DNA of 56,790 nt from an uncultured Veillonellaceae bacterium. Its GTDB lineage: Bacteria; Bacillota; Negativicutes; UBA1444. Shown here in pieces: positions 1,160 to 56,591 of the stretch (its first letter is position 1; each line of letters starts with the position of its first letter). The position numbers and the translations under genes are program-made. Under the pieces are notes generated by a model that saw only the letters and a list, made by a program, of their open reading frames with translations, was not told the DNA's origin and ran no database searches. Location: NCBI GenBank assembly GCA_964386615.1, contig CAYLSL010000001.1:1-56790 (forward strand), given 5' to 3'.

Positions 1160-1189
1160 TAGCCACAATCACCTTTTCTATAAATTTGC

Positions 1190-5519: not shown

Positions 5520-6245
5520 CTATTCGACAACTTCGATCTTTTTCAGGCGATCTTGTTTGAACCGCTCGGAATAGGAATCATACGTGTAGATTGCCGCCAA
5601 CGGATTGTGACCCAAGGCCCGGTCCTTGACAGCAAAAACAGTCACCATCGCTTGGGAATATTTCATAAACATTGAATCGTGACCGACACATAGCCCCAGC
5701 AGAATGTTAAACTCGGTTTCGGCCGTATTCAGCACTTCCGCCTGGGCAATTGGATTGCACATCGGCTCATGCTGACCTATTTGGACCCGTTCGTGATCCG
5801 CCAAGTTCAGCGCAGCCTTGTCGATGCCGCCCACTTTACACATCACGGACACGACGGAAAATCCGTGGTCTTCGAGAATTTTACAAAAAACGGCCGCTTC
5901 TTTGTGCAATCCGCCGCAAAACGCCACGCCAAGTTTCTTGTAGCCCATTTTGCGGGAAAACTCAATGATTTCCTGTACCCGCGGCTTCACCGGGAATTTA
6001 TAGGCAGGTTGAGACATACGGTCAATGTAGCATTCTGCTTCCTGTACCGAGGCATTGTGGGCAAATAAATGAATGTCGGGCTTCGCGTATTCGGCAGCCG
6101 CATTTTCAATTGCATCGGGATACAGTTTAGTCGAGCAAAATGCCGGCGCAGAACCTTCCGGGCTCCTACAGATTCGGTTTTTCACCATACACTGGTCGCA
6201 TTTTCCTTCCCAGATTTTTTCAGTTTCAGTCGTAGACTTTTCCAC
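5520..6245 (-). CDS. DUF1847 domain protein (Cys-rich putative metal-binding protein)
   Basis: N-terminal CDQC...C....C motif, then LGVAFCGGL, MCKVGG and LGLCVGHDS, all typical of DUF1847. Length is 241 aa. Confidence 0.75.
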   Translation of the reverse strand: MEKSTTETEKIWEGKCDQCMVKNRICRSPEGSAPAFCSTKLYPDAIENAAAEYAKPDIHLFAHNASVQEAECYIDRMSQPAYKFPVKPRVQEIIEFSRKMGYKKLGVAFCGGLHKEAAVFCKILEDHGFSVVSVMCKVGGIDKAALNLADHERVQIGQHEPMCNPIAQAEVLNTAETEFNILLGLCVGHDSMFMKYSQAMVTVFAVKDRALGHNPLAAIYTYDSYSERFKQDRLKKIEVVE

Positions 6246-6297
6246 CCTATTCTCCCCCTAAAAAAATAATCATTCACGCCTGTGTTTGGCTCCGGGT

Positions 6298-7275
6298 CTA
6301 TTCTTCAGGCACGCACAATTTTCCTGCCCGAATTAATCCTAGAGTCTTAACCGCAACCAACAAAGTAACCAAGCTAGACAACATAAGTAATACAGTTCCA
6401 CTGTATTGAAAAAACACGAACTGCGTGGCCCTGAAGGCAATAAACTGAGCAATAGTAAGAGCACATAGCGGGAAAGTATAGGCCCACCAGGACATGAAAA
6501 ACGGCAACGCCAAAAATTTCTTATACATAGTGAATAGCAAGATGGCAATAAATAAAGCCAAATAAATCATAATACGTCCGGCTGCATCAAAACTGCCGGT
6601 GAGTCGAAAATAGGAAACAAATCCGATTGCTGGCGGCGCGATCAAAATAAACAGGGTTGGCACAAGCTTCCCCGGCAGGTCGCCGTGAAACCCCAATCGA
6701 TATATCATAATGGCAAATAAACTCAACCAAAACACTAATCCAATGCTATAAAAGAACCAGGATATTTCTTTCGAGGCAAACTCCACCCCGGCAATGGGTA
6801 CCAGGATATTGCCAACCACAGGAATAAACCAGGACGGGTTGAATTGTTGGATGCTATAAAGCCTGCCGATCCAGCGCGACACAGCAATTAGAGTAAATGT
6901 TAAATGCGCGATGGCCCCCGCCACCCACAAGCCCTTTGCCAAAGAAGGATTACTTTCCATCATGGCAATAGCAAGCAACAACAAACTGATGGAGATTGCG
7001 GGAAAGAAGTTAAACCGAACCGGATGATTAAATTCCTGCTGCGCCTCGTGAGGAAATCGGATAATTTTACCTATATAAAACCCGCAAATCACGAGGAATG
7101 CGCCAGAAGCCAGCAGCAACAACCCATTCCCCACACTATGCAGAATCGGATAGAGTTGTGCTGCCCGCATGAAAGCGATTGACAATCCTGTCAAACCCAT
7201 GATGCTGGCAAATACTGTGATGGGAAAAAATTGCACACTAAAACTCCTTTGCAAAAAAGCATCAAGGAACGGCAA
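6298..7275 (-). CDS. TDT/TehA/SLAC1 family anion transporter (tellurite-resistance / dicarboxylate transporter family)
   Basis: 325-aa protein with about 10 hydrophobic helices. The N-terminus FFPITVFASIMGLTGLSIAF is typical of the family. Confidence 0.75.
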   Translation of the reverse strand: MPFLDAFLQRSFSVQFFPITVFASIMGLTGLSIAFMRAAQLYPILHSVGNGLLLLASGAFLVICGFYIGKIIRFPHEAQQEFNHPVRFNFFPAISISLLLLAIAMMESNPSLAKGLWVAGAIAHLTFTLIAVSRWIGRLYSIQQFNPSWFIPVVGNILVPIAGVEFASKEISWFFYSIGLVFWLSLFAIMIYRLGFHGDLPGKLVPTLFILIAPPAIGFVSYFRLTGSFDAAGRIMIYLALFIAILLFTMYKKFLALPFFMSWWAYTFPLCALTIAQFIAFRATQFVFFQYSGTVLLMLSSLVTLLVAVKTLGLIRAGKLCVPEE

Positions 7276-7331
7276 AATCCTGACATCCTCTGATTTCTGC
7301 CGTTCCCCTGGTTCCCCTCTTAAATGCCAAT

Positions 7332-8519
7332 TTAGTGTCCGCAGCTATGACCATCGCCTTCTTCATGATTACATGCATTTTCCCCGCCAGTCAATACCCC
7401 GGTCAAATATTTTTTTACGATTTCCAGCGGTTCTTCCGGCACAATGCCGCAAACAACCGTAATCCCTTTGGATTCGAAGATTTGTTGGGCCCGTTCTCCC
7501 ATCCCGCCAACCAAAACTACGGTTGCACCTTGCTGCGAGAGCCATTCGGGAATCACGCCAGGTTCATGGGGCGGCGGCACCAGCATTTCCGTTGACACTA
7601 CCTTATTTTCTTCAACTGTTGCCAACAAAAATTGCTCGCAATGACCAAAGTGGGAACTCAAACTTCCTGCAACAACCGGAACCGCAACTTTTTGCTTTTC
7701 GTTCATTTTGTCTATCCCCTTCGCTTCCTCTTCTATAGATAGTCGGGAAACAATCGCCGATACCATCGTTTTCATGATTGCAGAACGTTCCAAAACGGAC
7801 GCGCCATCGTCGCCGGCACAGACCACCATCGGGTCAATCGGCATTTGGCCCAGAAATGGAACTTTGAATTCCTGCGCCAGTTTTTCGCCGCCGCCGACTT
7901 TGAAAATTGCGGCATGGTTACCGCAGGCAGGACAGACATAGCCACTCATGTTCTCAATGATGCCAACCACTTTCAGTCCGACTTGCTGGCAAAAATTCAA
8001 CGATTTTTTCACATCTGACAAGGCCACTCCTTGCGGAGTTGTTACAACAATCGCCCCACACCCTGGAATAAACTGGGCTACGGTCAACGGCTCGTCACCA
8101 GTTCCCGGCGGGCTGTCAATAATCAAAACATCGAGCGGCCCCCAGGCAACATCAGTCAAAAACTGCTTGATAACGCCGATTTTTAAAGGGCCGCGCCAAA
8201 TCACAGCATCATCCTGGTGCTGAAGGAATCCTTGCATCGAAATTACTTTTAGATTCTCCGTATATTGGTGAGGTTGAATCTTGCCGTTCACTGAGTCGAG
8301 CGCCAGCCCAGTCAGTCCGAGAATCCGTGCAATACTCGGTCCATGAACATCAATGTCCAGCAATCCCGTGCGCATTCCTTTTTCAGCACATTCTGTCGCG
8401 ATGGCGGCTGCCATAGTACTTTTCCCTACACCTCCCTTGCCGCTCATCACCATGAAAACCTGCTTTACACTTTTTAAAAATTGCTCCACTTCCGCATCTT
8501 GCTGTTGCCCGTGTTCCAT
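7332..8519 (-). CDS. Mrp/NBP35/ApbC-type Fe-S cluster carrier ATPase fused to a C-terminal NifX/NifB-like (Nitro_FeMo-Co) domain, ending in a Cys/His tail
   Basis: Deviant Walker A MSGKGGVGKST and the cluster-bridging motif YVCPACG. The C-terminal domain (VAVPV....LSSHFGHCEQFLL..V......STEML.....HEPGVIPEWL...GATVVLVGGMG..A..IF...GI.V) is followed by the tail CNHEEGDGHSCGH. Confidence 0.85.
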   Translation of the reverse strand: MEHGQQQDAEVEQFLKSVKQVFMVMSGKGGVGKSTMAAAIATECAEKGMRTGLLDIDVHGPSIARILGLTGLALDSVNGKIQPHQYTENLKVISMQGFLQHQDDAVIWRGPLKIGVIKQFLTDVAWGPLDVLIIDSPPGTGDEPLTVAQFIPGCGAIVVTTPQGVALSDVKKSLNFCQQVGLKVVGIIENMSGYVCPACGNHAAIFKVGGGEKLAQEFKVPFLGQMPIDPMVVCAGDDGASVLERSAIMKTMVSAIVSRLSIEEEAKGIDKMNEKQKVAVPVVAGSLSSHFGHCEQFLLATVEENKVVSTEMLVPPPHEPGVIPEWLSQQGATVVLVGGMGERAQQIFESKGITVVCGIVPEEPLEIVKKYLTGVLTGGENACNHEEGDGHSCGH

Positions 8520-8524
8520 TTTTC

Positions 8525-8893
8525 TCAGACCCCTTTTTTCTCATTTGGTGCAAAATATTCTTGATAGTGGCCTTCTAAAAATGCCGCCAGTACCTCACTG
8601 ACTTTACCGGGTTCGACGCAAAATACTTTGGCGTCGTTGGTCCGTAGTACCTGAAGTGCTTTCGGCCCAACATTCCCGGTAATCAACACTTTTGCTCCAA
8701 GCTTTTCTATGGTTTGAGCTGCTTGTATGCCTGCGCCGTGGGCCAAGTCGGCATTCGTGCTGTTTTCATAGACCGTCCAGGCTTTTTCCCGCGAATCAAA
8801 TACTAAAAAATAGGGAGAGCGACCAAACCGTCCGTCCATCATCCCGCCAGGGCTTTTCGTTGCCGCTGTAACTGCTATTTTCATTCTATTCAC
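8525..8893 (-). CDS. NifX/NifB-like dinitrogenase iron-molybdenum cofactor family domain protein (MTH1175-like)
   Basis: MKIAVTA......DGRFGRSPYFLVFD........EN........GAGIQAAQ.....GAKVLITGNVGPKA...L. Length is 122 aa. Confidence 0.8.
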   Translation of the reverse strand: MNRMKIAVTAATKSPGGMMDGRFGRSPYFLVFDSREKAWTVYENSTNADLAHGAGIQAAQTIEKLGAKVLITGNVGPKALQVLRTNDAKVFCVEPGKVSEVLAAFLEGHYQEYFAPNEKKGV

Positions 8894-8902
8894 CCCTTAT
8901 TA

Positions 8903-9781
8903 CTAACTATTTGCCAATCTAATTTCGAGTTGCTGCCACAACTTCACAACCTGCGACTTAAGTACTGCATCAGTCCCTGACATGACCGTCCGATTGTCTT
9001 GCAACGCCTGACGAAATTCATCCCGATAAGCGATTTCTCCGGCAATTTGAATACTATTTGTCGCGCACCAGTCATGGATTTGCTGGCGAACCCCGCTGTG
9101 TAAATCACTCTTGTTTATACAAACACAGAGCGGGATTCTAAAGTGTTCGGTTAGTTCAAACAATCGCTGCGCATCGTGTAACGCCGACAACGTCGGCTCC
9201 ACTACCGCCAAAACCAGCGATGCTCCTGTTATCGCCGCAATGGCCGGGCAACCAATACCCGGTGGACCGTCGGTCAAAATAAGCGGCGCGCTAAGCTCCG
9301 TCGCCATATCACGAGCCAGCCCCTTCACTTTACAAACCAGTTTGCCTGAGTTTTCTATCGCCACGCCCAAATCCGCATTCGCCATCATCCCGTAAGCAGT
9401 CTGCCAGGTTTTCCAGTCGCCCGCATTTCGCGGCTGCATCGCAATAGCCGCCGTCGGGCAATGATCGGCGCATACACCGCAACCTTCGCAAAGTAGCGGG
9501 CCAATGAGCTTCCCATTGTCGATAGCGCTAAATTGACAAAGTGCGCCACATTTATTGCACTGGATGCAGGCGGCAGAATCGACGCTGATTTCCCAGCCTG
9601 ACTCAAACGGACCAGTTGAGATTAGCTCACCGCCAAGAATCAACTGCAAATTCGCCGCATCTACATCGCAATCCGCTAGTACCTTATTGGGAATCAGCGT
9701 TGCCAGGGCACCGGTTATACTGGTCTTGCCTGTTCCGCCCTTGCCACTGACAACAACCAGTTCTTTTATCGGCATGCCCAT
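8903..9781 (-). CDS. MinD/ParA-type P-loop ATPase with an inserted 2x[4Fe-4S] ferredoxin domain (COG1149-type)
   Basis: Deviant Walker A SGKGGTGKTS. Cluster motifs CIQCNKCGALC and CEGCGVCADHCP. Its start overlaps the upstream paralog by 16 nt. Confidence 0.85.
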   Translation of the reverse strand: MGMPIKELVVVSGKGGTGKTSITGALATLIPNKVLADCDVDAANLQLILGGELISTGPFESGWEISVDSAACIQCNKCGALCQFSAIDNGKLIGPLLCEGCGVCADHCPTAAIAMQPRNAGDWKTWQTAYGMMANADLGVAIENSGKLVCKVKGLARDMATELSAPLILTDGPPGIGCPAIAAITGASLVLAVVEPTLSALHDAQRLFELTEHFRIPLCVCINKSDLHSGVRQQIHDWCATNSIQIAGEIAYRDEFRQALQDNRTVMSGTDAVLKSQVVKLWQQLEIRLANS

Positions 9782-10614
9782 TTCAACCTCACCTCTTCCC
9801 AGATTTTCCGCCCCATTGCAGCGGCTTCACCAGATAGAGCTCCCCCTGCATACTGTTCGGCCCAGCTACGGCTATAAGGAATATCGGCAATCAGCGGAAT
9901 CTGCCGTTTCATGCAGAGTTCCTGAATTTTTCGCCGCCAAACCCCTGCCTCGCTTTTATTGATCACAACGCCGCAATTCTTTACTCCGATTTCCTGCAAT
10001 ACATCGATTGCCAGTTCCAGGTCATGCAGCCCGAATGCATTGGGTTCCGTAACCAACAGGCAGCCGTCACTGCCCTGGACGGCCATGGCCATCGAACAAG
10101 AGGTGCCTGGCGGACAATCCAGAATCGTATTATCATATTGTTCCACTGCTGCTTTTAAGGCTTTAATTAACGGACCGCCAGCCGGAAATCCCGGATCGAT
10201 TTTCCCTGCCAGCCAGCGGACATGCTCATATGCGCCTGTGCCCCAACCTTTTTCCACTTCACCGATGCGGCGGGCTTGTTCTGCAATCGCCTGTTTTGTA
10301 CAAGCCAGTTGACAGCCGCCGCAGCTATGGCAAAGTTCGGGAAACACCATGGCTTTTCTTCCCGCCACCACTAGTGCAGCAAAGCGGCAAGCTTTGACAC
10401 AATCGCCACAGCCATCGCAACGCTCGGCCAGAATCGTCGGGGTGGTTATCGTCACCGCCACCATACCTTCCCGCTCGGGGTTCAGAAACAGATGGCAATT
10501 CGGTTCTTCCACGTCACAATCAACTAACTCCACCCGCACCGATCCCAACGCCATCATCAGCGCCACGGTTGTTTTACCTGTACCGCCCTTGCCGCTCGCC
10601 ACACTAACAATCAC
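9766..10614 (-). CDS. MinD/ParA-type P-loop ATPase with an inserted 2x[4Fe-4S] ferredoxin domain (COG1149-type), paralog
   Basis: Deviant Walker A SGKGGTGKTT. Cluster motifs CDGCGDCVKAC and CHSCGGCQLAC. Confidence 0.85.
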   Translation of the reverse strand: MIVSVASGKGGTGKTTVALMMALGSVRVELVDCDVEEPNCHLFLNPEREGMVAVTITTPTILAERCDGCGDCVKACRFAALVVAGRKAMVFPELCHSCGGCQLACTKQAIAEQARRIGEVEKGWGTGAYEHVRWLAGKIDPGFPAGGPLIKALKAAVEQYDNTILDCPPGTSCSMAMAVQGSDGCLLVTEPNAFGLHDLELAIDVLQEIGVKNCGVVINKSEAGVWRRKIQELCMKRQIPLIADIPYSRSWAEQYAGGALSGEAAAMGRKIWEEVRLKWACR

Positions 10615-10632
10615 TTAATCATCACCTCCCGT

Positions 10633-10881
10633 TTACTCCTGGGGTTTCCCCTGACGCATGGCATGCGCCTGGCTGCGTAGTCGCTCCGCCTGCTGCTGCA
10701 ACAATTCTGCCTGACTCTCCATCGTCTGTGGATCAGTAAAACGACCGCGGCCAACAAATCCACAGCCCATACCTCCGCCAAAACCTCGATTTCCTGTCAT
10801 ACATCCCCCACGACCTCTTCCCATCGGGCCCATCCCCATCGGGCCCATCCCCATCGGACCTGTTCCATCTCCTCTTGGCAT
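10633..10881 (-). CDS. DUF5320 family small protein (Gly/Met-rich N-terminus, C-terminal coiled coil)
   Basis: MPRGDGTGPMGMGPMGMGPMGRGRGG.. followed by ELLQQQAERLRSQ. AGGAGG RBS upstream. Confidence 0.7.
   Translation of the reverse strand: MPRGDGTGPMGMGPMGMGPMGRGRGGCMTGNRGFGGGMGCGFVGRGRFTDPQTMESQAELLQQQAERLRSQAHAMRQGKPQE
10821..10860 (-). repeat. In-frame 15-bp tandem repeat (2.7 copies) inside the DUF5320 gene
   Basis: ccatcgggcccatcc occurs twice, followed by ccatcggacc. It encodes the repeated GPMGM units. Confidence 0.9.
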
Positions 10882-10934: not shown

Positions 10935-10960
10935 AAAAAAAAGGGCGCGCTACCCTTTTT
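10935..10960 (-). terminator. Weak hairpin with a T8 tract after the YeeE/YedE pair (possible terminator or attenuator)
   Basis: Minus strand: AAAAAGGG-tagcgcg-CCCTTTTTTTT. Only three GC pairs, so it is weak. Confidence 0.35.
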
Positions 10961-10984: not shown

Positions 10985-11515
10985 CTACAAGCCCTTTTTC
11001 TCCAGCCAGCGAAACAACAGCAGCGTCAAAATCACAAAAGGAATAATCACAAACCAATGATTGACGCCAAGGACTTGCGGCAAGGTGATCTTGCCAAAAT
11101 CGCCCCACTTCAGTACAGTGCTTTTCATCAAAGGGAAAGCTTCGGCATAAATCGCTGCGCCTGCAACCATGCCGGCAATTCCCCAAAGTCCATCTAGACG
11201 ACCTTCGCCGACTGCCCCCATCGAAGTACCGGGGCAGTAACCGAACAAACCCCAACCAATTCCGAACAGCAGTCCGCCGATGACGATCGCCCCAACAATC
11301 ATTGGCTTGATCGACAACTTTGCCAAACCAAGATCAACCAGCAAATAGGTTCCCACCATACCAACCACGATTGCCGACATCATGAATTTGACTATCGTCA
11401 TGTCCAGCATCCTCAATGCGCCAATCTGCTTGTCATAGCGCAACACCCGTCCTTTTTGCAACAGAAAACCAAACAAAATCCCGGTAATCAGTCCATACAG
11501 TTGATCGTTCGTCAT
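10985..11515 (-). CDS. YeeE/YedE family sulfur-compound transporter, half-size subunit B
   Basis: 176-aa membrane protein with GILFGFLLQKG and the conserved-Cys motif FGYCPGTS. Its ATG overlaps the stop of the upstream half-gene (ATGA). Confidence 0.85.
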   Translation of the reverse strand: MTNDQLYGLITGILFGFLLQKGRVLRYDKQIGALRMLDMTIVKFMMSAIVVGMVGTYLLVDLGLAKLSIKPMIVGAIVIGGLLFGIGWGLFGYCPGTSMGAVGEGRLDGLWGIAGMVAGAAIYAEAFPLMKSTVLKWGDFGKITLPQVLGVNHWFVIIPFVILTLLLFRWLEKKGL

Positions 11516-12039
11516 TTCGAGTCACCTCCGCCATAGAGCATCCGGGCTACAATGATCCCGCCGACGAAAAAGAACACCAGGGCAATAAACCCGCTGACCG
11601 CTAGCTGAAGCGAACCGCTCAGCCCATGACCACTCGGTCAGCCATCGGCCAAACGGGCGCCGAACATTGCGATCGTCCCACCAACGAAAGCAACCAGGCC
11701 TCGTTTGACCAACCCACCGCCAAACCGTTGCTGCCACATATCTGGCACCGCCTGAATCCGAAAACTGCCGGAAGAAATTGCCGCAATGAAGGAGCCCGCC
11801 AAGATTCCGACAACAAACATCCACTGCCAGTCAATTACCGGTTTTGTGCTAGCAAAATATTCTAATTGTTTGATTCGGGCCGGGTCAATCAGCTGTTCCA
11901 CATAGCCGGCGCCTCGCACAAATGTTGTCGATGCACCAAAGTACTTGCCGGTAAACCATACGGAACCAACAGAAACCAATCCTGCCAATGCTCCAGCCAG
12001 ATAAGGATTCCACGCGCCTGGATCTTTGTTTTTCTCCAT
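11512..12039 (-). CDS. YeeE/YedE family transporter, half-size subunit A, with an in-frame UGA (11640..11638) read as selenocysteine (candidate selenoprotein)
   Basis: The track ORF 11638..12039 ends ...FGARLADG-TGA. The same frame continues PSGHGLSGSLQLAVSGFIALVFFFVGGIIVARMLYGGGDSK to TGA at 11514..11512. My recollection of homologs is GGC(P/T)SGHG(L/I)SG, which puts the UGA at the Cys. The read-through product is 175 aa, matching the 176-aa partner. Confidence 0.65.
11604..11623 (-). promoter_or_regulatory. Candidate bacterial SECIS hairpin, starting 14 nt downstream of the UGA in the YeeE/YedE subunit A gene
   Basis: RNA: GCUGAGCG-GUU-CGCUUCAGC. The stem is 8 bp with one bulged U. The apical region reads G-GUU-C and is G/U-rich, as in known SECIS loops. 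Confidence 0.45.
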
Positions 12040-12081: not shown

Positions 12082-12507
12082 CTAACGACGTCGGCTCACA
12101 GTATGACCTTTGCATTTCGGACAGCTCATCTCGCAGCCGCGCCCGCCATGTCCATGCGGCACTTCCCATTCATGCCCGCATGAATTGCAAATGAATTGTC
12201 TCAGCCCTATTGCACAAGGCTTCACACGGTAATTGCCACCCTCAATGCGTAAGGATTTACCCTGCCAAAGAAACTGAGCAATTTTCGCATGCGCTTTTGC
12301 AAGCACACGGTGGAAGGTTGGTCGGGAAATCCCCATCCGCTCGGCAGCTGGGCCTTGGTCAAGGCCTTCCATATCCGCTAAGCGAATCGCCTCCATCTCC
12401 TCTACGGAGATCACAATTTCATCCACCGCAAAAATCGGCACACCAACTGGTTTAAATTGCGCAATAGGCGGCAGTTGTTCGACATGCCTATCTTTGGTTG
12501 GTCGCAT
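12082..12507 (-). CDS. DUF134 (UPF0251) family putative DNA-binding protein with a C-terminal zinc ribbon
   Basis: MRPTKDRHVEQLPPIAQFKPVGVP...MEAIRLADMEGLDQGPAAERMGISRPTFHRVLAKAHAKIAQFL.QGKSLRIEGG. Extension: FICNSCGHEWEV...CPKCKG. Confidence 0.8.
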   Translation of the reverse strand: MRPTKDRHVEQLPPIAQFKPVGVPIFAVDEIVISVEEMEAIRLADMEGLDQGPAAERMGISRPTFHRVLAKAHAKIAQFLWQGKSLRIEGGNYRVKPCAIGLRQFICNSCGHEWEVPHGHGGRGCEMSCPKCKGHTVSRRR

Positions 12508-12540: not shown

Positions 12541-12569
12541 ATTATAAGAAAAACTCTCCGTTACGTCAA
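12541..12569 (-). promoter_or_regulatory. Putative sigma-70-type promoter of the DUF134-YeeE/YedE operon
   Basis: On the minus strand: TTGACG (12569..12564), a 17-nt spacer, then TATAAT (12546..12541). Confidence 0.6.
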
Positions 12570-15387: not shown

Positions 15388-16061
15388 GTCACTTTAGTTT
15401 CAGCCGTCGCGATTTTGTAGTGGGAGCGATAGCGGGAACGGCTGCCGGCGCAACCATCGTTGCTGCCTTATTAAGAAAAAAAGCGCCTTCTGATGCCGCC
15501 TTGTCTGGAAACTCGGTCTTTAAGACTGACCGGGCTGCCCGCATCACAACGCCCAGCTTCATTGCCATAGATCATGCGCGTTGCAGCGGTTGTCGGATCT
15601 GCGAAGCAGAATGCGCTTTAGTCAGAGAGCATTCCTTTGATTTTTGGCGCAGCCGAATCAGAGCACATCGGTTTGAACCGCAACTTGATATCATTTCCCT
15701 TTGCGCAGGGTGCGCGGATGCCCCCTGCGTTTCTGTCTGCCCAAAAGAAGTTGTCGCACTGACCCGGGATACGCAAACTGGGGCAATCTTGCTGAACGAG
15801 AGCAAATGCATCGGCTGCCAGGCCTGCATAAATGCCTGCGCCAAAGATCGTACCGCTGTGCTTCGCATGAGCCGTGATGGCAAAAAAGCACTGGGGCTCT
15901 GCGATTTGTGCGGCGGAGACCCCGCCTGTGTCAAAGCCTGCCCCGAACAGTGCCTTTCCATCGTCCCCGCCAATATCGACGGCAAGGTGCTGGCGGCAAA
16001 GCCGGCCGAAATTGCACGTTCGCTTTCCCTGTCGGTCTATCGCGCGGGGGGGGATCGCTAA
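15384..16061 (+). CDS. Tat-signal 4x[4Fe-4S] polyferredoxin (DmsB/HybA/YdhX-like electron-transfer subunit)
   Basis: Twin-arginine signal [25 protein letters not shown]. Cluster motifs [15 protein letters not shown]...[17 protein letters not shown] and [14 protein letters not shown]. The start overlaps the tatA stop (ATGA). Confidence 0.85.
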
Positions 16062-17860
16062 TGGCTCACGGCTATACCGGACGCATTCTGGAAATTGATC
16101 TCAACCTGCGGAGTCACAAAACAAGCGACACAAATATGAAAGATGCCGAGCAATACCTCGGTGGTCGGGGACTGGGAGTTAAAACATTGTGGGACCGCTT
16201 GCCAACTGCCGGCCTTGACCCGCTGTCACCGGCTAATTTGCTGACATTCTGGCCCAGTCCGATTTCTGGCCTGCCCTTCGCCGGTCCTTCACGGGTCACC
16301 GTGGTAACAAAGGCAGCGAATACTTCGCCAATGGATTCAGGTTTACCGCATGCTTCGACATTAACCTGGTCTTCCCTCAGCGGCCACTTCGGGCCAGCCC
16401 TGAAACAGGCTGGCTACGACGGATTAATCATTAATGGGCGCGCCGATCAGCCGGTCATTCTGATTATTGACGAAAACAATGTATCGCTGCGTAATGCAGC
16501 CGATTTGTGGGGCCAGACGACTTCCGTCACGTTAGAACGCCTCAATCGTGAACTGGGAAGCGATTTCCGGCTCATGGCCATCGGTCCGGCTGGCGAAAAC
16601 GGCGTAAAATTTGCCGGCATCACCGGTGATGTAAAACGCACCACTGCCCGCGGCGGTGCTGGAGCCGTAATGGGCGCCAAAAATCTTAAAGCCATCGCGG
16701 TCCGCGGGTCGCTGCCTGTCTCGCTGCAGAATCCTGAAGGATTGATTACGTTACGGGGAAACATCACAGCGTTGCTGTCGGCCTGGAATAATTATGCGCA
16801 ATGGCGCCGTTGGGGCGCTGCACCGCTGCTGCTTTCTTCCGACAAGGCCGGCATGCTGACCACGCAAAATTATCGGGAAGGCTCTTGGCCGGACATTGCC
16901 AAACTAAGCCTGCCAACCGCCGAGCGAGAATTTTGGCTGCGCCATGCAGCCTGTGCATATTGTCCGCTCAAGTGCGTCAAAGTCGGAAAACTATCGCAGG
17001 GGCCCTGGAAGGGGGTTATTGCCGAAGGCCCTGGTTACAGCGCCGGAGCAATGCTGGGATCGAACTGTGGAGTCAAAGACTTCGGCGGGTTGATGAAACT
17101 GATTTCCCGCGCCGATGATTTGGGAATGGACCCCATCGCTGCCGGTAACGTCCTCGGCTTTGTAATGGATTTATTTGAACACGGCATTTTGCGCAGTGGT
17201 GATCTGGATGGATTGTCGCCTACTTGGGGGAATGTCCCCGTATTGTTGCAACTGATGGACAAAATCGCCCTGCAACAAGGCTGCGGTGCGGTTCTGGCCC
17301 AAGGCGTAAAAAAAGCCGCCGCCCAGATTGGTTCTGCCGCCATGCCTTTTGCCATGCATGTTAAAGGTCAGGAACTCGCCGGTTGGAATGTTCCTGCCAG
17401 CCACGACTTCGCCCTGGTTTATGGAACAGCCAACCGCGGTGGCAGTCACCAGGAAGGCGCCAGCATCCAGGAGCAACATCGCCGGACGTTTCTTGATGCC
17501 TTATGTGTTTGCCGTTTTGTTTATGGCGCGATCGGCACGGCCCCTTTTCAACGGGCTGTCTCGCTTGCCACCGGCTGGAACTGTGATGATGCAACCATGT
17601 TATCAACCGGCGAGCGAATCTGGAACTTGGAAAAATTATTCAACGCCCGCGAAGGGTTCCGCCGAATCGACGACAGACTGCCAGACAGATTCAGCAGCAT
17701 TACTTTCCGTAGCGGTCCCAAAGCCGGCGCCAAATTTCCTGCTGAAAAGCAAGATACCTTGTTGGACAATTATTATGAGGGGCGCGGCTGGGATAAGAAA
17801 ACCAGCCTGCCAACCACCGAAAAACTCAAGTCTCTCGGCCTCGACAAGCTGGTTACATAA
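16061..17860 (+). CDS. Aldehyde:ferredoxin oxidoreductase family tungsto/molybdopterin enzyme (AOR)
   Basis: [16 protein letters not shown]-terminus and the Fe-S motif CAYCPLKC. Length is 599 aa. ATG at 16061 overlaps the ferredoxin stop (TAATG). The first 51 residues of the track ORF from 15908 lie inside the ferredoxin gene and are spurious. Confidence 0.9.
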   Translation: MAHGYTGRILEIDLNLRSHKTSDTNMKDAEQYLGGRGLGVKTLWDRLPTAGLDPLSPANLLTFWPSPISGLPFAGPSRVTVVTKAANTSPMDSGLPHASTLTWSSLSGHFGPALKQAGYDGLIINGRADQPVILIIDENNVSLRNAADLWGQTTSVTLERLNRELGSDFRLMAIGPAGENGVKFAGITGDVKRTTARGGAGAVMGAKNLKAIAVRGSLPVSLQNPEGLITLRGNITALLSAWNNYAQWRRWGAAPLLLSSDKAGMLTTQNYREGSWPDIAKLSLPTAEREFWLRHAACAYCPLKCVKVGKLSQGPWKGVIAEGPGYSAGAMLGSNCGVKDFGGLMKLISRADDLGMDPIAAGNVLGFVMDLFEHGILRSGDLDGLSPTWGNVPVLLQLMDKIALQQGCGAVLAQGVKKAAAQIGSAAMPFAMHVKGQELAGWNVPASHDFALVYGTANRGGSHQEGASIQEQHRRTFLDALCVCRFVYGAIGTAPFQRAVSLATGWNCDDATMLSTGERIWNLEKLFNAREGFRRIDDRLPDRFSSITFRSGPKAGAKFPAEKQDTLLDNYYEGRGWDKKTSLPTTEKLKSLGLDKLVT

Positions 17861-38144: not shown

Positions 38145-40172
38145 CTAAAGCGCTGTTCCGTTTGCCGGTCTGACATCAACCTTCGTATCATAGAAAGTGC
38201 TGCCCCGGCCTTGGTCGGTCAATCGTTGCGAAGTCAAGGCATTGATCGTGCGCTGCCCCGGTGCATCACGCAGCCAGGATACTCCATCGGCGACCAACAC
38301 GCCGCAAGGAACATCATCCGTCGTCTTTAATATAAAATTCACTTCGCCCAGTTCATTCCAGGCCACAACCTGTTGACCATCAACCAGCATCAATCGTTCG
38401 GCATCTGCCGGGTTCATTCTCAGTGCCATTGGGCCCTTTTTCGCAACCAGCTCCGCCGATTCATTGAAGGATGAGTTGAGTGAATACAAACTCGGTGCTG
38501 TCATCAGGCAAAAGGCGCCGCTGCCGCCATAGGGAGGAAACCAATCCGGTAACGGAACGGCCTGCCGCGGATTCACAATCTCGATTTTTCCCGAAGCCGT
38601 TTTAAACTGCTGTTTATAATTTTCTGGCAGCGGCAAGGTCACTGCTTCACCGGCCTGGAATTTCTGCCAGTCGATTTTTGCCAACCAGTCACCCGGTGTT
38701 GCAAACAGTTGATCCAGCAGTGCGTCGGCCGACTGCTGAAAAAAGGAATCCGTATAACCCATAGCCTGGGCCAGCAGACAAAAAGTTTCCCAGTTTGACT
38801 TTGCTTCAGCGACAGGCGCAATACAGGCCGGTACCCGTTGCAGTCCATAATGCCCGTAAGCACGATAAGCGTCGGCGTGTTCTGCCGAGGTCGTGGCCGG
38901 CAGCACGACATCGGCGTACAAAGCAGTGTCTGTCATAAAGCGTTCATGCACTACGGTGAATAGGTCTTCACGGGCCAGTCCGCGCAGAACTTGATTTTGG
39001 TCCGGGTACACTGAAGCCGGATTCGAATGGTATACATACAATCCCATGATCGGCGGATCACCGACTGCTCCGGTCAGTGCGTCACCCAATTGGTTAATAC
39101 TGACCAACCGCGTCGGTGTATCGATAAAGTCTTCCCTGGTAATGCAGCCAGTATTAAATGCATTACCTGTAGATAGATCTCCCAACGTTCCGCCACCGGG
39201 TTTTGCATAAGCGCCGACCAATGCCGGCAGGCAGCAGATTAAGCGAGCCGTCATCGCGCCATTCCCATACCGGTATAAGCCGCTGCCCTGCCGGATAAAC
39301 GGAGCGGCTGCCTTGCCATAGGCGCAGGCAAGTTCGGTCAGGACTTCGGCCGGCACTCCTGTTATCGCTGCAACTTTAGCCGGCGAATAACGCGGTAACA
39401 CTTCAGCGGCCAGTTGGTCGAAGCCCAATACATTTTCCTGTATATACTGATGATTGAGCAAGTTTTCTTGCCGCAAGACATGCATGATTCCCAGTGCCAG
39501 GGCGCCATCCGTCCCCGGCCTGATCAAAATCGTCCGGTCGGCAAACATTTTGGCGGTTTCGGTGATATGCGTCTCGATAATCCATACTTTGGCGCCACGT
39601 TTTTTTGCCTCTCTCAGCGGGTGTACGAAATGTATGTTTGTTGCCAGAGTATGAGCTCCCCAGATGACAATCAGGTCACTTTGCGCCGCTTCATCCGGTT
39701 CAGCTTGCAACGTCCCTCCCATAACTGCTTCCCAGCCATTTCCCTTGGCGGAAGAACACAGATTCCGTTCCAAGCGGGAGGCTCCCATCTTATGGAACAA
39801 AGCATGTCCCGCATTGCGCTGCAACATGCCCATTGTTCCCGCATACGAAACCGGCAGAATGGCCTCGCCGCCATATTCGGCAATGATCTGTTTCCAGCGC
39901 TGGGCAATGACCTCGACAGCCTCAGCCCATGAAGCTTCCCTGAATTTGCCGTCCCCTTTTGCCCCCACCCGCAACAAAGGACGCTTCAATCGCTCCGGCG
40001 AATGGATAATCTTTTCATAGCGGGCCATTTTGGGGCACAACACACCGCGGGTATAAGGATGGTCAGGATCACCCTTTACCGCGGTTACTGAGCCAGCTTC
40101 AATCTTCAGCAATAATCCGCAGGCATCGGGACAATCATAGGGACAGACAGATTTTTTCCACTCGCTGCTCAT
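38145..40172 (-). CDS. Cytoplasmic molybdopterin oxidoreductase (MopB superfamily, substrate unknown)
   Basis: N-terminal [4Fe-4S] motif CPYDCPDACG...LCPK. No Tat signal. Length is about 675 aa. ATG at 40172 (MSSEWKK) is preferred over the track start at 40184. Confidence 0.8.
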   Translation of the reverse strand: MSSEWKKSVCPYDCPDACGLLLKIEAGSVTAVKGDPDHPYTRGVLCPKMARYEKIIHSPERLKRPLLRVGAKGDGKFREASWAEAVEVIAQRWKQIIAEYGGEAILPVSYAGTMGMLQRNAGHALFHKMGASRLERNLCSSAKGNGWEAVMGGTLQAEPDEAAQSDLIVIWGAHTLATNIHFVHPLREAKKRGAKVWIIETHITETAKMFADRTILIRPGTDGALALGIMHVLRQENLLNHQYIQENVLGFDQLAAEVLPRYSPAKVAAITGVPAEVLTELACAYGKAAAPFIRQGSGLYRYGNGAMTARLICCLPALVGAYAKPGGGTLGDLSTGNAFNTGCITREDFIDTPTRLVSINQLGDALTGAVGDPPIMGLYVYHSNPASVYPDQNQVLRGLAREDLFTVVHERFMTDTALYADVVLPATTSAEHADAYRAYGHYGLQRVPACIAPVAEAKSNWETFCLLAQAMGYTDSFFQQSADALLDQLFATPGDWLAKIDWQKFQAGEAVTLPLPENYKQQFKTASGKIEIVNPRQAVPLPDWFPPYGGSGAFCLMTAPSLYSLNSSFNESAELVAKKGPMALRMNPADAERLMLVDGQQVVAWNELGEVNFILKTTDDVPCGVLVADGVSWLRDAPGQRTINALTSQRLTDQGRGSTFYDTKVDVRPANGTAL

Positions 40173-40196
40173 GTTCCACCTCACAAATAGTATCTA

Positions 40197-53694: not shown

Positions 53695-53885
53695 TTCTCC
53701 TATTCGCTTTCACTGGGAAAGCAGCACTTTCTTTCGCATTGACACAACTTTGCTTTGACATAATAATTCGACATTCCCCTTTGATAATTCCTGCAAAATC
53801 AAACGAGAAAAAGAATATTTCGCGCCAGACAGGAACCGAACAATTGGCAACGAATATGATAATATCAGCTCCAAGGAGGTGTCGT

Positions 53886-56591
53886 GTGGATTTTATACAA
53901 CTAACCATCGACGACAGATCAGTGACTGTTTCACCAGGAACTTCCGTCCTGGAAGCGGCCCGGCAAGTCGGAATCAAAATTCCTACCCTCTGTCACCTGG
54001 CTGACTTGACCCCCACTGGCGCCTGTAGGATTTGCGTCGTCGAGATCGATGGAATGAAAACTCTGGCTGCAGCCTGCTCTATGCCGGTCAGCGCAGGCAT
54101 GTCCGTGCACACCCACTCTCCGGCTGTCTTGGAAACACGGCGCATGGTCCTTGAGTTAATGTTGGCCAACCATCCCGCCGATTGCTTTTCCTGCGGCCGC
54201 AATTTGAACTGCGAATTGCAGGAACTTGCCGCAGAATTGGGGGTTAAAAAAATCCGTTTTGATGGAGAGCGCCGCCATTATACAGTCGATGACAGTAATC
54301 CATTTATCGTGAGGGACAATGAAAAGTGCATCCTTTGCGGCCGCTGCGTTCGGACTTGTCAAGAGCTGCAAGTCTGCAACGTGCTCGATTTTACCGGTCG
54401 CGGCTTCGACACCAAACTCGCACCAGCATTTGACAGTGCTACACGCGAATCTGATTGTGTTTTTTGCGGCGCTTGTGTATCCGCCTGCCCGGTCGGCGCC
54501 TTAACAGAAAAAGTGCTCTGCCAGTCGGGACGACCTGACCAGAAGGTGCGAACGACCTGTCCATTCTGTGGTGTCGGCTGTAATTTTGACCTGAATGTCA
54601 AAGATGGTAAAGTGATTGGCGTCACTTCCACGCCAGACAGTCCGGTCAACGGGCGCCTGCTCTGCGTCAAAGGCCGGTTTGGCGTTGATTATATTCACAG
54701 TCCACAACGCCTAACAACACCGCTGATTCGCAAGAACGACAAGTTGGAACCGGCCTCCTGGGATGAAGCGCTGAATCTGGTTGCCCATCGATTCAAGGAA
54801 ATCCGATCGCAGCATGGGTCGGATGCTTTAGCGGCTCTCAGTTCGGCTCGCTGTACCAATGAAGAAAACTATGTCCTGCAAAAATTCATGCGCGCGGCGA
54901 TCGGCACCAACAGTGTTGATCACTGCGCCCGAACCTGACACAGTCCCACCGTGGCCGGTCTGGTCACAGCATTTGGTTCTGGCGCCATGACTAACTCCAT
55001 TAATGAAATCAGCGACAGCAAAATGATGTTTGTTATCGGCGCAAATCCCTCAGAAGCCCATCCGGTCATTGCAGCAAAAATGCGTCAGGCTCGCCGCAAA
55101 GGCGCCGGCTTGATCGTGGCTGACCCGCGAAAAACTGAACTCGCAGCCATGGCTGATGTTTGGCTGCAACTAAAACCCGGCAGCGATGTCGCTCTACTGA
55201 ATGGTCTGATGCATATTATCCTGCGCGACGGCCTGCAGGATAGCGACTTCATTGCCCATTGCACAAGCGGCTTTGATTCGGTAGCCGCCACTGTCGCCAA
55301 CTATCCGCCCGATGTCGTCGAGCAAATTACCGGCGTCAGCTCCTGCTTGCTGGAACAAGCTGCGCATCTGTATGCCAAGGCGGAACGGGCCCAGATTTTT
55401 TATACTCTGGGCATTACCGAACACTGCTGGGGAACAGACAACGTCCTGTCGATCGCTAACCTGGCCATGTTGACCGGTAATGTCGGCAAACCTTGCTCCG
55501 GCGTCAATCCACTGCGCGGGCAAAACAACGTGCAGGGGGCTTGCGACATGGGTGCGCTGCCTGATGTCCTGCCGGGTTATCGTAAAATAACCGACGAAGA
55601 TGAACGGAAAAAATTTGAGCAGGCTTGGCAAATCAGCCTACCTGCTCTGCGCGGCTTCACTATCCCGGAAATGTTCACTGCTGCTGTAAATGGCGAAGTC
55701 AAAGCCATGTATATCGTTGGTGAAAACCCGGTGCTGTCAGACGCCAACGCCAATCACGTTTCCCATGCACTGCAGTCGCTCGATTTTCTGGTGGTGCAGG
55801 ATATTTTTCTGACGGAAACTGCTCTGTTGGCTGATGTGATACTGCCAGCCGCCTGTTTTGCCGAAAAAAATGGCACTTTCACCAATACCGAACGCCGCAT
55901 CCAAATGGTGCGAAAAGCAGTGGAACCGCCCGGACAAAGCCGGACCGACCTCGAAATCATCACGGACCTCGCAGGCCGCCTCGGTTATCCGATGCACTAC
56001 GCTGGCCCGGAAGATGTCATGCGGGAAATTTCCACCCTGACCAGGATTTATCACGGCGTGACCTATGAGCGCCTGCAAGAACGCGGTCTGCAATGGCCGA
56101 TACCTGATATTACCCATCCCGGCACTCCGTTCCTGCATGAGAATGGTCAGTTCACCTGTGGCCTGGGTTGGTTCACTTCGGTTGAATACCATCCGCCGGC
56201 AGAAGGGCCCGATGCAGAGTATCCGTTAGTTCTTACAACCGGTCGACGGCTCTATCATTACAATGTCAGTACCTTCGGCAAGTCCGCTGCGTTATCCGAA
56301 CAGCTGCCGCAAGAACGGCTCTGGATTCACCCCGCCGATGCCCGCCAGCTAGGGTTAAGCGACGAGCAATGCGTCAATGTCGAATCCCGCCGCGGCAGCA
56401 TTCAGACAAAAACCTGGCTTACCGAAGCCGTCCCGCCGGGACTGGTATGGCTGTCCTTTCATTTTCCCGATGCACCGACCAATCAGATTACCAATGATGC
56501 CGGCGATCAGATCACCCGGACCTATGAGTACAAAGTCTGTGCCGTAAGAATTACCGTTCCACCTGCCGCAGTCAATACAAGCTCCTGTTAA
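53886..56591 (+). CDS. fdhA: Formate dehydrogenase alpha subunit (NuoG-like Fe-S N-terminus plus molybdo/tungstopterin domain), selenocysteine at UGA 54936..54938
   Basis: Track ORFs 53739..54938 and 54951..56591 are in the same frame. Across the junction the sequence reads [29 protein letters not shown], the classic FdhA/FdhF Sec motif. The N-terminus carries 2Fe-2S and 4Fe-4S motifs (CRICVVEI, CILCGRCVRTC, CVFCGACVSACP, CPFCGVGC). The GTG at 53886 lies 6 nt after AAGGAGG. Confidence 0.9.
54951..54967 (+). promoter_or_regulatory. SECIS hairpin of fdhA
   Basis: GUGGCC-GGUCU-GGUCAC, starting 12 nt after the UGA. The apical loop contains GGUC, as in the E. coli fdhF element. Confidence 0.7.

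Follow-up and report, generated by a model that had tools for sequence, protein, structure and literature searches.

A UGA codon at the outer pore position of a split YeeE/YedE-type channel gene from an uncultured Veillonellaceae bacterium is very probably read as selenocysteine

A stretch of 56,790 nucleotides from an uncultured Veillonellaceae bacterium (GTDB lineage Bacteria; Bacillota; Negativicutes; UBA1444; NCBI GenBank assembly GCA_964386615.1, contig CAYLSL010000001.1, positions 1 to 56,790 of the forward strand; hereafter the window) carries a gene for one half of a YeeE/YedE-type membrane channel whose open reading frame (ORF) halts at a TGA codon and continues in the same frame behind it, which raises the question of whether this codon ends the protein or encodes selenocysteine (Sec). 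Our analysis indicates that the region very probably encodes a selenoprotein, namely the PmpA-like half of a two-gene split channel of this type, and comparative evidence makes it very likely that the UGA at 11640..11638 is read as Sec. The selenoprotein gene, termed here the Sec half, lies at 11512..12039 on the minus strand and comprises 175 codons plus a stop with the putative Sec at codon 134, as delineated from the sequence, its translation and its match to the Pfam family PF04143.

Preceded by a good AGGAGG ribosome-binding site, the ATG at 12039..12037 (minus strand) opens a 133-codon ORF (12039..11638) that ends with ...FGARLADG-TGA (11640..11638). Beyond this TGA the frame is open for 41 more codons (PSGHGLSGSLQLAVSGFIALVFFFVGGIIVARMLYGGGDSK) up to the TGA at 11514..11512, which overlaps the ATG of the partner gene (11515..11513) as ATGA. 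The in-frame UGA (11638..11640, minus strand), very probably read as the selenocysteine U134, sits in the window motif D-G-U-P-S-G-H-G and corresponds to Cys293 of S. thermophila YeeE. A preliminary description of the locus had reported the ORF stop, the 41 open codons and the ATGA overlap, the restoration by read-through of a 175-aa protein beside a 176-aa partner, and a hairpin with a bulged U beginning 14 nt after the UGA; the sequence confirms each of these. A run of 41 open codons is expected by chance in roughly 1 case in 8 (estimate) and the open frame is by itself weak evidence. As frame and hairpin alone go only weakly beyond chance, the case rests on comparative evidence. Gene callers cut the product to 133 aa (12039..11638), and a lookup in the protein collection found exactly this truncated product on 111 contigs, with close 133-aa members of its cluster carrying the name 'hypothetical protein', whereas the read-through protein written with X at the UGA position is absent from this collection. 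Nine protein clusters of exactly 133 aa, 86–97% identical, end at ARLADG and are, to judge from their sequences, the Sec-half gene shortened by gene callers.

We compared the position of the UGA in a first set of 46 loci, 42 from GTDB species representatives and four from metagenomes. Where the flanks were readable, the U134 column held TGA in 32 loci and TGY in 11, and in the aligned full-length homologs it was occupied by Cys in 37 of 37 sequences, with G133, C134, P135, S136, G137, H138, G139, L140, S141 and G142 invariant across this 37-sequence alignment. The closest full-length homologs comprise 172–175 aa, are up to 80% identical and all read ADG-C-PSGHGLSG. Every TGA locus of the first set with a complete flank continued for 39–42 codons before the next stop, which in most loci overlapped or abutted the partner start, and the Cys-form loci displayed the same layout. 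A DNA-pattern scan of metagenome contigs added at least 120 further TGA loci with an upstream frame of at least 120 codons and a downstream frame mostly of 40–42 codons, wherever the contig allowed; the metagenome matches listed include at least 104 distinct downstream peptides, all in frame. Altogether, at least about 150 loci besides the window carry this in-frame TGA; they represent at least four phyla and include Sporomusaceae and other Negativicutes, many Desulfobacterota, Nitrospiraceae (Nitrospirota) and Leptospirales. TGA forms far outnumber Cys forms in the sampled loci, a ratio to be read with a sampling that favours TGA forms. Sec and Cys forms were intermingled in a neighbour-joining tree, with closely related Cys forms found in the same clades as Sec forms, which is the usual picture of Sec/Cys exchange.

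The ratio of nonsynonymous to synonymous substitution rates (dN/dS) after the UGA was 0.03–0.2, indistinguishable from that of the 40 codons before it, and the codons after the UGA are under the same purifying selection as those before. Random stops or frameshifts in orthologs, named in the preliminary description as the sign of a pseudogene, were not the pattern observed: orthologs retain both the UGA and the frame behind it, PF04143 homologs carry Cys at this column and other UGA-bearing orthologs exist. One Cys-form locus from a long-read Negativicutes metagenome-assembled genome (L043, 3001..3526) has a frameshift within the gene, probably the result of an indel in the assembly and not the sign of a pseudogene. 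That the window gene itself is a pseudogene, a former Cys YeeE half struck by a nonsense mutation with the 41 codons as a decaying remnant, would agree with the 133-aa product reported by gene callers and with an open run that is not rare by chance (estimate), but is hardly credible given the recurrence of this TGA in at least about 150 loci of at least four phyla with frame, length and stop/start overlap kept, the low dN/dS of 0.03–0.2 downstream, and the lack of any frameshift or second stop seen other than the assembly artefact in L043.

The read-through product, profiled with Cys placed at the stop position, matched PF04143 (Sulf_transp, YeeE/YedE family; cut-off 27 bits) at 84.8 bits (E = 1e-23) over residues 8–163, spanning the UGA. 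Residues 59–169 align to residues 229–328 of S. thermophila YeeE (StYeeE; 6LEO), with ARLADG-[U]-PSGHGLSG opposite AVTAGG-C-NIGHFLTG and U134 opposite Cys293. The partner gene (10985..11515, minus strand) encodes a 176-aa PmpB-like half of the N-terminal-half type, assigned by its matches to PF04143 (58.4 bits) and PF20398 (31.8 bits) and by its alignment to StYeeE residues 5–121. Its Cys94 (motif GYCPGT; TGC codon at 11234..11236, minus strand) stands opposite the essential Cys91 of StYeeE, and this column held Cys in 43 of 43 partners and TGA in none. The position of StYeeE Cys22 is V/L in the partner (LQKGRVLRY). In StYeeE, the outer site (position I) is where Cys293 touches the bound thiosulfate, and the substitutions C293A and C91A abolish function while C22A is tolerated (PMC7449682). 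Cys in the homologs together with the alignment to Cys293 bears out the earlier proposal that the UGA lies at a conserved pore cysteine.

These features bear directly on the possibility that the UGA is a true terminator and the protein a 133-aa one, with hairpin and tail serving mRNA stability or termination-reinitiation. Between two translationally linked genes, a stable hairpin could in principle be regulatory. In the tail, however, it is the amino-acid sequence that is conserved, and synonymous sites vary outside the hairpin; the tail comprises the YeeE pore-loop motif and the final transmembrane helix; and in the Cys forms, which lack the hairpin, the same 41 residues are part of one continuous protein. 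The 133-aa product, moreover, has no residue equivalent to the essential Cys293; missing the pore loop and the last helix, it could not form a pore. We therefore consider termination at this codon highly improbable.

The candidate selenocysteine insertion sequence (SECIS) spans 11593..11642 on the minus strand and was delineated as a lower plus an upper helix from its fold, its covariation and published criteria. The upper hairpin, GCUGAGCG-GUU-CGCUUCAGC with one bulged U, lies at 11624..11603 and starts 14 nt past the UGA. Its apical loop is GUU (11615..11613); opening of the closing G-C pair would enlarge it to GGUUC. In the minimum free energy (MFE) fold, 11642..11635, including the UGA, pairs with 11600..11593 as a lower helix, GCUGACCG being paired with the stretch over the Val-Ser codons, CGGUCAGC. 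The published model for bacterial SECIS elements (bSECIS) specifies a loop of 3–9 nt with G in the first two loop positions, an upper stem of 4–16 bp, a UGA-to-loop spacing of 16–37 nt and an MFE of -7.5 kcal/mol or lower (PMC13188914). The window element, with a 3-nt loop starting with G then U, an upper stem of 9 bp with one bulge, a spacing of 22 nt and an upper-hairpin MFE of -10.3 kcal/mol, falls within the model on every count. The fold z-score of the upper hairpin was -2.4, with 4–6 of 200 shuffles folding equally well.

Among 29 distinct TGA-form sequences, the upper helix was 92% paired, as compared with 19–51% when the pairing partners were slid by 1–3 columns. Compensatory changes replaced C-G by U-A in 10 of these sequences and the adjoining pair G-C by A-U in two; where column 36 is C instead of U, the neighbouring U pairs and the bulge moves by one position. 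The core GAGCGGUUCGCU is almost invariant in TGA forms, and the third-codon-position entropy of codons +5 to +9 amounts to 0.2–0.5 bits in TGA forms versus 0.85–1.8 bits in Cys forms, which neither retain the hairpin sequence nor fold into a hairpin. The divergent TGA forms (L041, L042, L038, L045) differ in sequence and yet fold, at the corresponding position, into a hairpin whose loop is rich in G. The hairpin had initially been called SECIS-like, a designation strengthened by its agreement with the bSECIS model and by the covariation in orthologs. In the lower stem, UGAC/GUCA is kept in most Sec forms, and most Cys forms read GUGAG there. Searches of Rfam, with the whole window at gathering thresholds and with a 161-nt region at E up to 10, returned no family matching the hairpin; a match to isrK at 11.3 bits was discarded as chance.

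Capacity for Sec decoding is indicated by a second gene of the window. Its fdhA ORF (53739..56591, plus strand), split in the ORF lists into pieces of 399 and 546 aa, contains a canonical Sec-UGA at 54936..54938 in the motif HCART-U-HSPTVAG, followed 12 nt downstream by the hairpin GUGGCC-GGUCU-GGUCAC, whose apical GGU is resembled by that of the Sec half. As the preliminary description had maintained, this gene is independent evidence, at the level of predicted coding, that the organism decodes UGA as Sec. A second molybdopterin oxidoreductase (38145..40184, minus strand; 679 aa) was considered as a Sec-fdhA and rejected, as the UGA is absent from it. An aldehyde:ferredoxin oxidoreductase (AFOR family) gene is found at 15908..17860 (plus strand); the molybdopterin oxidoreductase and AFOR genes are consistent with an anaerobic, Mo- or W-dependent lifestyle. 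A scan of the window for other split ORFs joined by TGA yielded no other convincing candidate.

Near-cognate or suppressor decoding might instead place a standard residue (Cys or Trp) at the UGA, either always or under selenium scarcity. Sequence cannot identify the inserted residue, and genes of the Sec machinery were not seen in the window. Yet the hairpin agrees with the bSECIS model and shares its apical GGU with the fdhA element of the window, a Cys/UGA pair is the hallmark of Sec, and the organism has a canonical Sec-fdhA. The hairpin is maintained only in UGA forms, and it would have no role in SECIS-independent read-through. We consider insertion of a standard amino acid very unlikely. 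The proposal that the UGA encodes Sec at the substrate-contacting position is supported by every computational test that we ran.

The designation of this selenoprotein as new did not hold. Peng et al. 2016 ISME J (Supplementary Table S3) list a 'YeeE/YedE family', for which they count 5 selenoproteins from 5 organisms, a 2022 review lists 'YeeE/YedE family protein, pfam04143, WP_012471001.1' (PMC9312934), and a 2026 review gives the motif GUxSG and places the family among predicted Sec-containing transporter proteins (PMC13188914); the main text of the GOS paper cited in the review literature does not mention the Sec-YeeE/YedE family, and our search for its primary description led to the table of Peng et al. 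alone. Compared by motif and family entry only, the catalogued proteins and the window gene share the Pfam family PF04143, the Sec motif (G-U-P-S-G in the window), a UGA with an in-frame SECIS and an origin in selenoprotein-rich anaerobes, and we detected no difference in kind. The window gene is a further, mis-annotated member of an already catalogued, predicted selenoprotein family and not a discovery. The literature that we found on Sec-YeeE/YedE proteins consisted of catalogue entries only, with no experiments, SECIS description or structural mapping, and the catalogues likewise come without SECIS, structural mapping or distribution analysis.

The division into two genes also has a precedent. 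The short proteins PmpA and PmpB match the C-terminal (Cys293) and N-terminal (Cys91) halves of YeeE, respectively, and Li et al. 2024 (PMC11582611) suggested that they assemble into a heterodimer. Like PmpA/PmpB of Serratia sp. ATCC 39006 and relatives, the window pair is split into a Cys293-type and a Cys91-type half, each of which contributes one pore chalcogen residue, and lacks an equivalent of Cys22. As judged from the published description, it differs by Sec at the Cys293-equivalent position, by a gene order with the C-half type first and by its size, 175 and 176 aa versus about 130 aa. The thiosulfate importer TsuA/YeeE (E. coli; S. thermophila 6LEO, 6LEP, 8J4C) belongs to the same fold family and shares the pore motif G-C/U-x-x-G-H-x-L-x-G as well as occupied Cys293 and Cys91 positions. 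Whereas TsuA is one chain of 330–350 aa, has nine helices and three cysteines in its pore, and needs an adjacent TusA-like YeeD/TsuB, the window pair consists of two chains with two pore chalcogens (Sec and Cys) and has no YeeD-like neighbour.

To place the pair in its genomic context, we analyzed 161 oriented loci. The partner half lies immediately downstream of the Sec half in essentially every locus, and since it is the only universally linked gene, the functional unit is the gene pair. No obligatory accessory gene (TusA/YeeD, rhodanese or selD) was universal beside it in these loci. After the partner half, the commonest neighbour was a coenzyme A (CoA)-disulfide-reductase-like flavoprotein, present in 15 of the 161 loci, and this neighbour hints at persulfide or polysulfide handling. 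These CoA-disulfide-reductase/NADH-oxidase type genes stand up- or downstream of the pair (5162..6523 in L005, 1471..2865 in L012, 4073..5731 in L043 and 12 other loci). Next in frequency came a metallo-beta-lactamase-fold protein, a universal stress protein and a Sec-peroxiredoxin. The peroxiredoxin gene of L004 (856..1632) has a TGA at 1174..1176 at the position of the peroxidatic cysteine (FTFV-U-PTELAA), and TGA-bearing peroxiredoxins also occur in L005, L041 and L042, the gene standing beside the pair in about 7 of the 161 loci; it probably belongs to the Sec-peroxiredoxins, which are a known selenoprotein family.

This context, together with profile scores, also bears on whether the selenoprotein pair imports selenium (selenite, selenide or selenosulfide), as predicted for YedE/FdhT. 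YedE-type proteins are tied to selenium metabolism by comparative genomics (PMC5322559), a Methanococcus YedE-like protein has been implicated in selenium transport by work cited in PMC11582611, sulfur and selenium anions are chemically similar, and Sec can form Se-Se or Se-S bonds. The YedE/FdhT selenium-metabolism protein (NF033796, TIGR04112) belongs to the same superfamily and has a conserved pore cysteine, but the members of this group carry Cys and are not selenoproteins, and their link is to selD and yedF. Against NF033796 (cut-off 350 bits), the Sec half scored 28.0 bits and the partner 37.7 bits, and against TIGR04112 (cut-off 200 bits) the partner scored 25.1 bits. With scores this far under the cut-offs, the suggested link to the selenium-metabolism YedE subfamily was not upheld. 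Neither selD, yedF nor another selenium gene recurs beside the pair in the 161 loci. The commonest extra neighbour is the CoA-disulfide-reductase-like flavoprotein (15 loci), and the clades of the Sec forms also contain closely related Cys forms. We consider selenium import improbable, although it fares better than any of the alternatives to Sec insertion discussed above.

Assuming Sec insertion, the pair can be assembled into a plausible working model. SelB bound to the hairpin would deliver Sec-tRNA to the UGA, and the ribosome would complete the last transmembrane helix and stop at ATGA, with translation coupled to that of the partner. The two four-helix halves would then heterodimerize, rebuilding the hourglass pore of the single-chain YeeE. 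Sec134 would occupy the outer substrate-capture position (StYeeE Cys293) and partner Cys94 the central position (Cys91), with the dispensable inner Cys22 presumably having no equivalent in the pair. The substrate would most likely be a reduced sulfur anion, for example thiosulfate or a sulfane or polysulfide species, and at the entry site the more nucleophilic selenolate would stand in for the thiol. The pKa of selenocysteine is about 5, that of cysteine about 8. With a pKa of about 5, Sec134 should be a selenolate at physiological pH, a state that would be less suited to the S-H...S hydrogen bonding that has been put forward for StYeeE than to a nucleophilic or covalent mode of capture.

A number of points weigh against this reading of the locus as a Sec-containing, YeeE-like pore. 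selA, selB, selC and selD were not seen among the window ORFs scanned and ARAGORN found no tRNA in the window; with no sel genes there, Sec competence rests on fdhA alone. The lower helix of the SECIS element was 77% paired among TGA forms with no compensatory change, and no 75Se labelling, peptide or reporter data for any member were found in the literature. On the structural side, an AlphaFold2 model of the 80%-identical Cys homolog P0001, built from a 37-sequence alignment, was too poor for use (pLDDT 60.6, pTM 0.34), and a Foldseek search of this model against the PDB gave only meaningless matches with E above 4. With a model of such low confidence, the structural mapping rests on the sequence alignment to 6LEO, and the association of the halves is a step that we infer. 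The pair is far below the NCBIfam TsuA cut-offs, the Sec half scoring 35.7 bits and the partner 33.2 bits against NF041049 (cut-off 645), and 47.7 and 44.6 bits, respectively, against NF052577 (cut-off 400). No TusA-like YeeD recurred among the neighbours in the 161 loci, for which no dedicated TusA profile scan was made. The substrate, which we infer, is the least certain step. Finally, if the pore cysteines served solely as S-H hydrogen-bond donors, a deprotonated selenolate would be a poor substitute.

A different mode of action may be envisaged, though we put it forward with considerable doubt: instead of merely guiding thiosulfate by S-H...S hydrogen bonds, pores of this type might work by transient covalent chalcogen exchange, in which a Se-S bond forms with thiosulfate, polysulfide or a selenium species, which is then passed on to partner Cys94. 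On this speculative account, the outer capture site of YeeE-type pores would repeatedly have acquired a selenolate through natural selection. If it were true, the Sec pair would be the first membrane transporter with a selenium-catalysed translocation step.

In the window, the pair is flanked by genes for DUF134 and DUF5320 proteins. The DUF134 (UPF0251) predicted DNA-binding protein is encoded upstream of the Sec half at 12082..12507 on the minus strand (PF02001, 77.3 bits); it has a C-terminal CxxC...CxxC zinc-ribbon-like tail and matched the FmdB-family model TIGR02605 weakly at 18 bits, below the cut-off of 31.3. Its linkage to the pair was observed only in Negativicutes (L001-L006, L043). 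Upstream of DUF134, a promoter-like site (TTGACG, 17 nt, TATAAT; 11 of 12 matches) is located at 12541..12569 on the minus strand, and just after the partner gene a terminator-like palindrome, AAAAAGGG...CCCTTTTT followed by a T-run, is located at 10938..10960, both being consensus matches only. Since these two sites bracket the genes, the arrangement suggests that DUF134, the Sec half and the partner form a three-gene transcription unit. Past the pair, the minus strand at 5520..10881 encodes DUF5320, two MinD-type 4Fe-4S ATPases, a NifX-like protein, an Mrp/NBP35-NifX fusion, a SLAC1/TehA-type anion channel and DUF1847. The DUF134/MinD-Fer4/NifX context of the pair is confined to Negativicutes, and the idea that the pair feeds adjacent metallocluster-type genes was dropped because of this restriction.

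What then does the locus add to the known family? No new class of system is opened, and the scientific point is modest but real. The contribution made here is to map the putative Sec onto the essential outer thiosulfate-binding Cys293 of YeeE and to define the SECIS element with covariation. The natural Sec/Cys pair is suited to testing hydrogen bonding versus a covalent sulfur relay in YeeE-type pores. Because the gene is called as a 133-aa fragment in the protein collection searched (111 contigs; at least about 150 related loci with TGA), the selenoproteomes and the sulfur-transport capacity of anaerobic Negativicutes and Desulfobacterota are under-counted.

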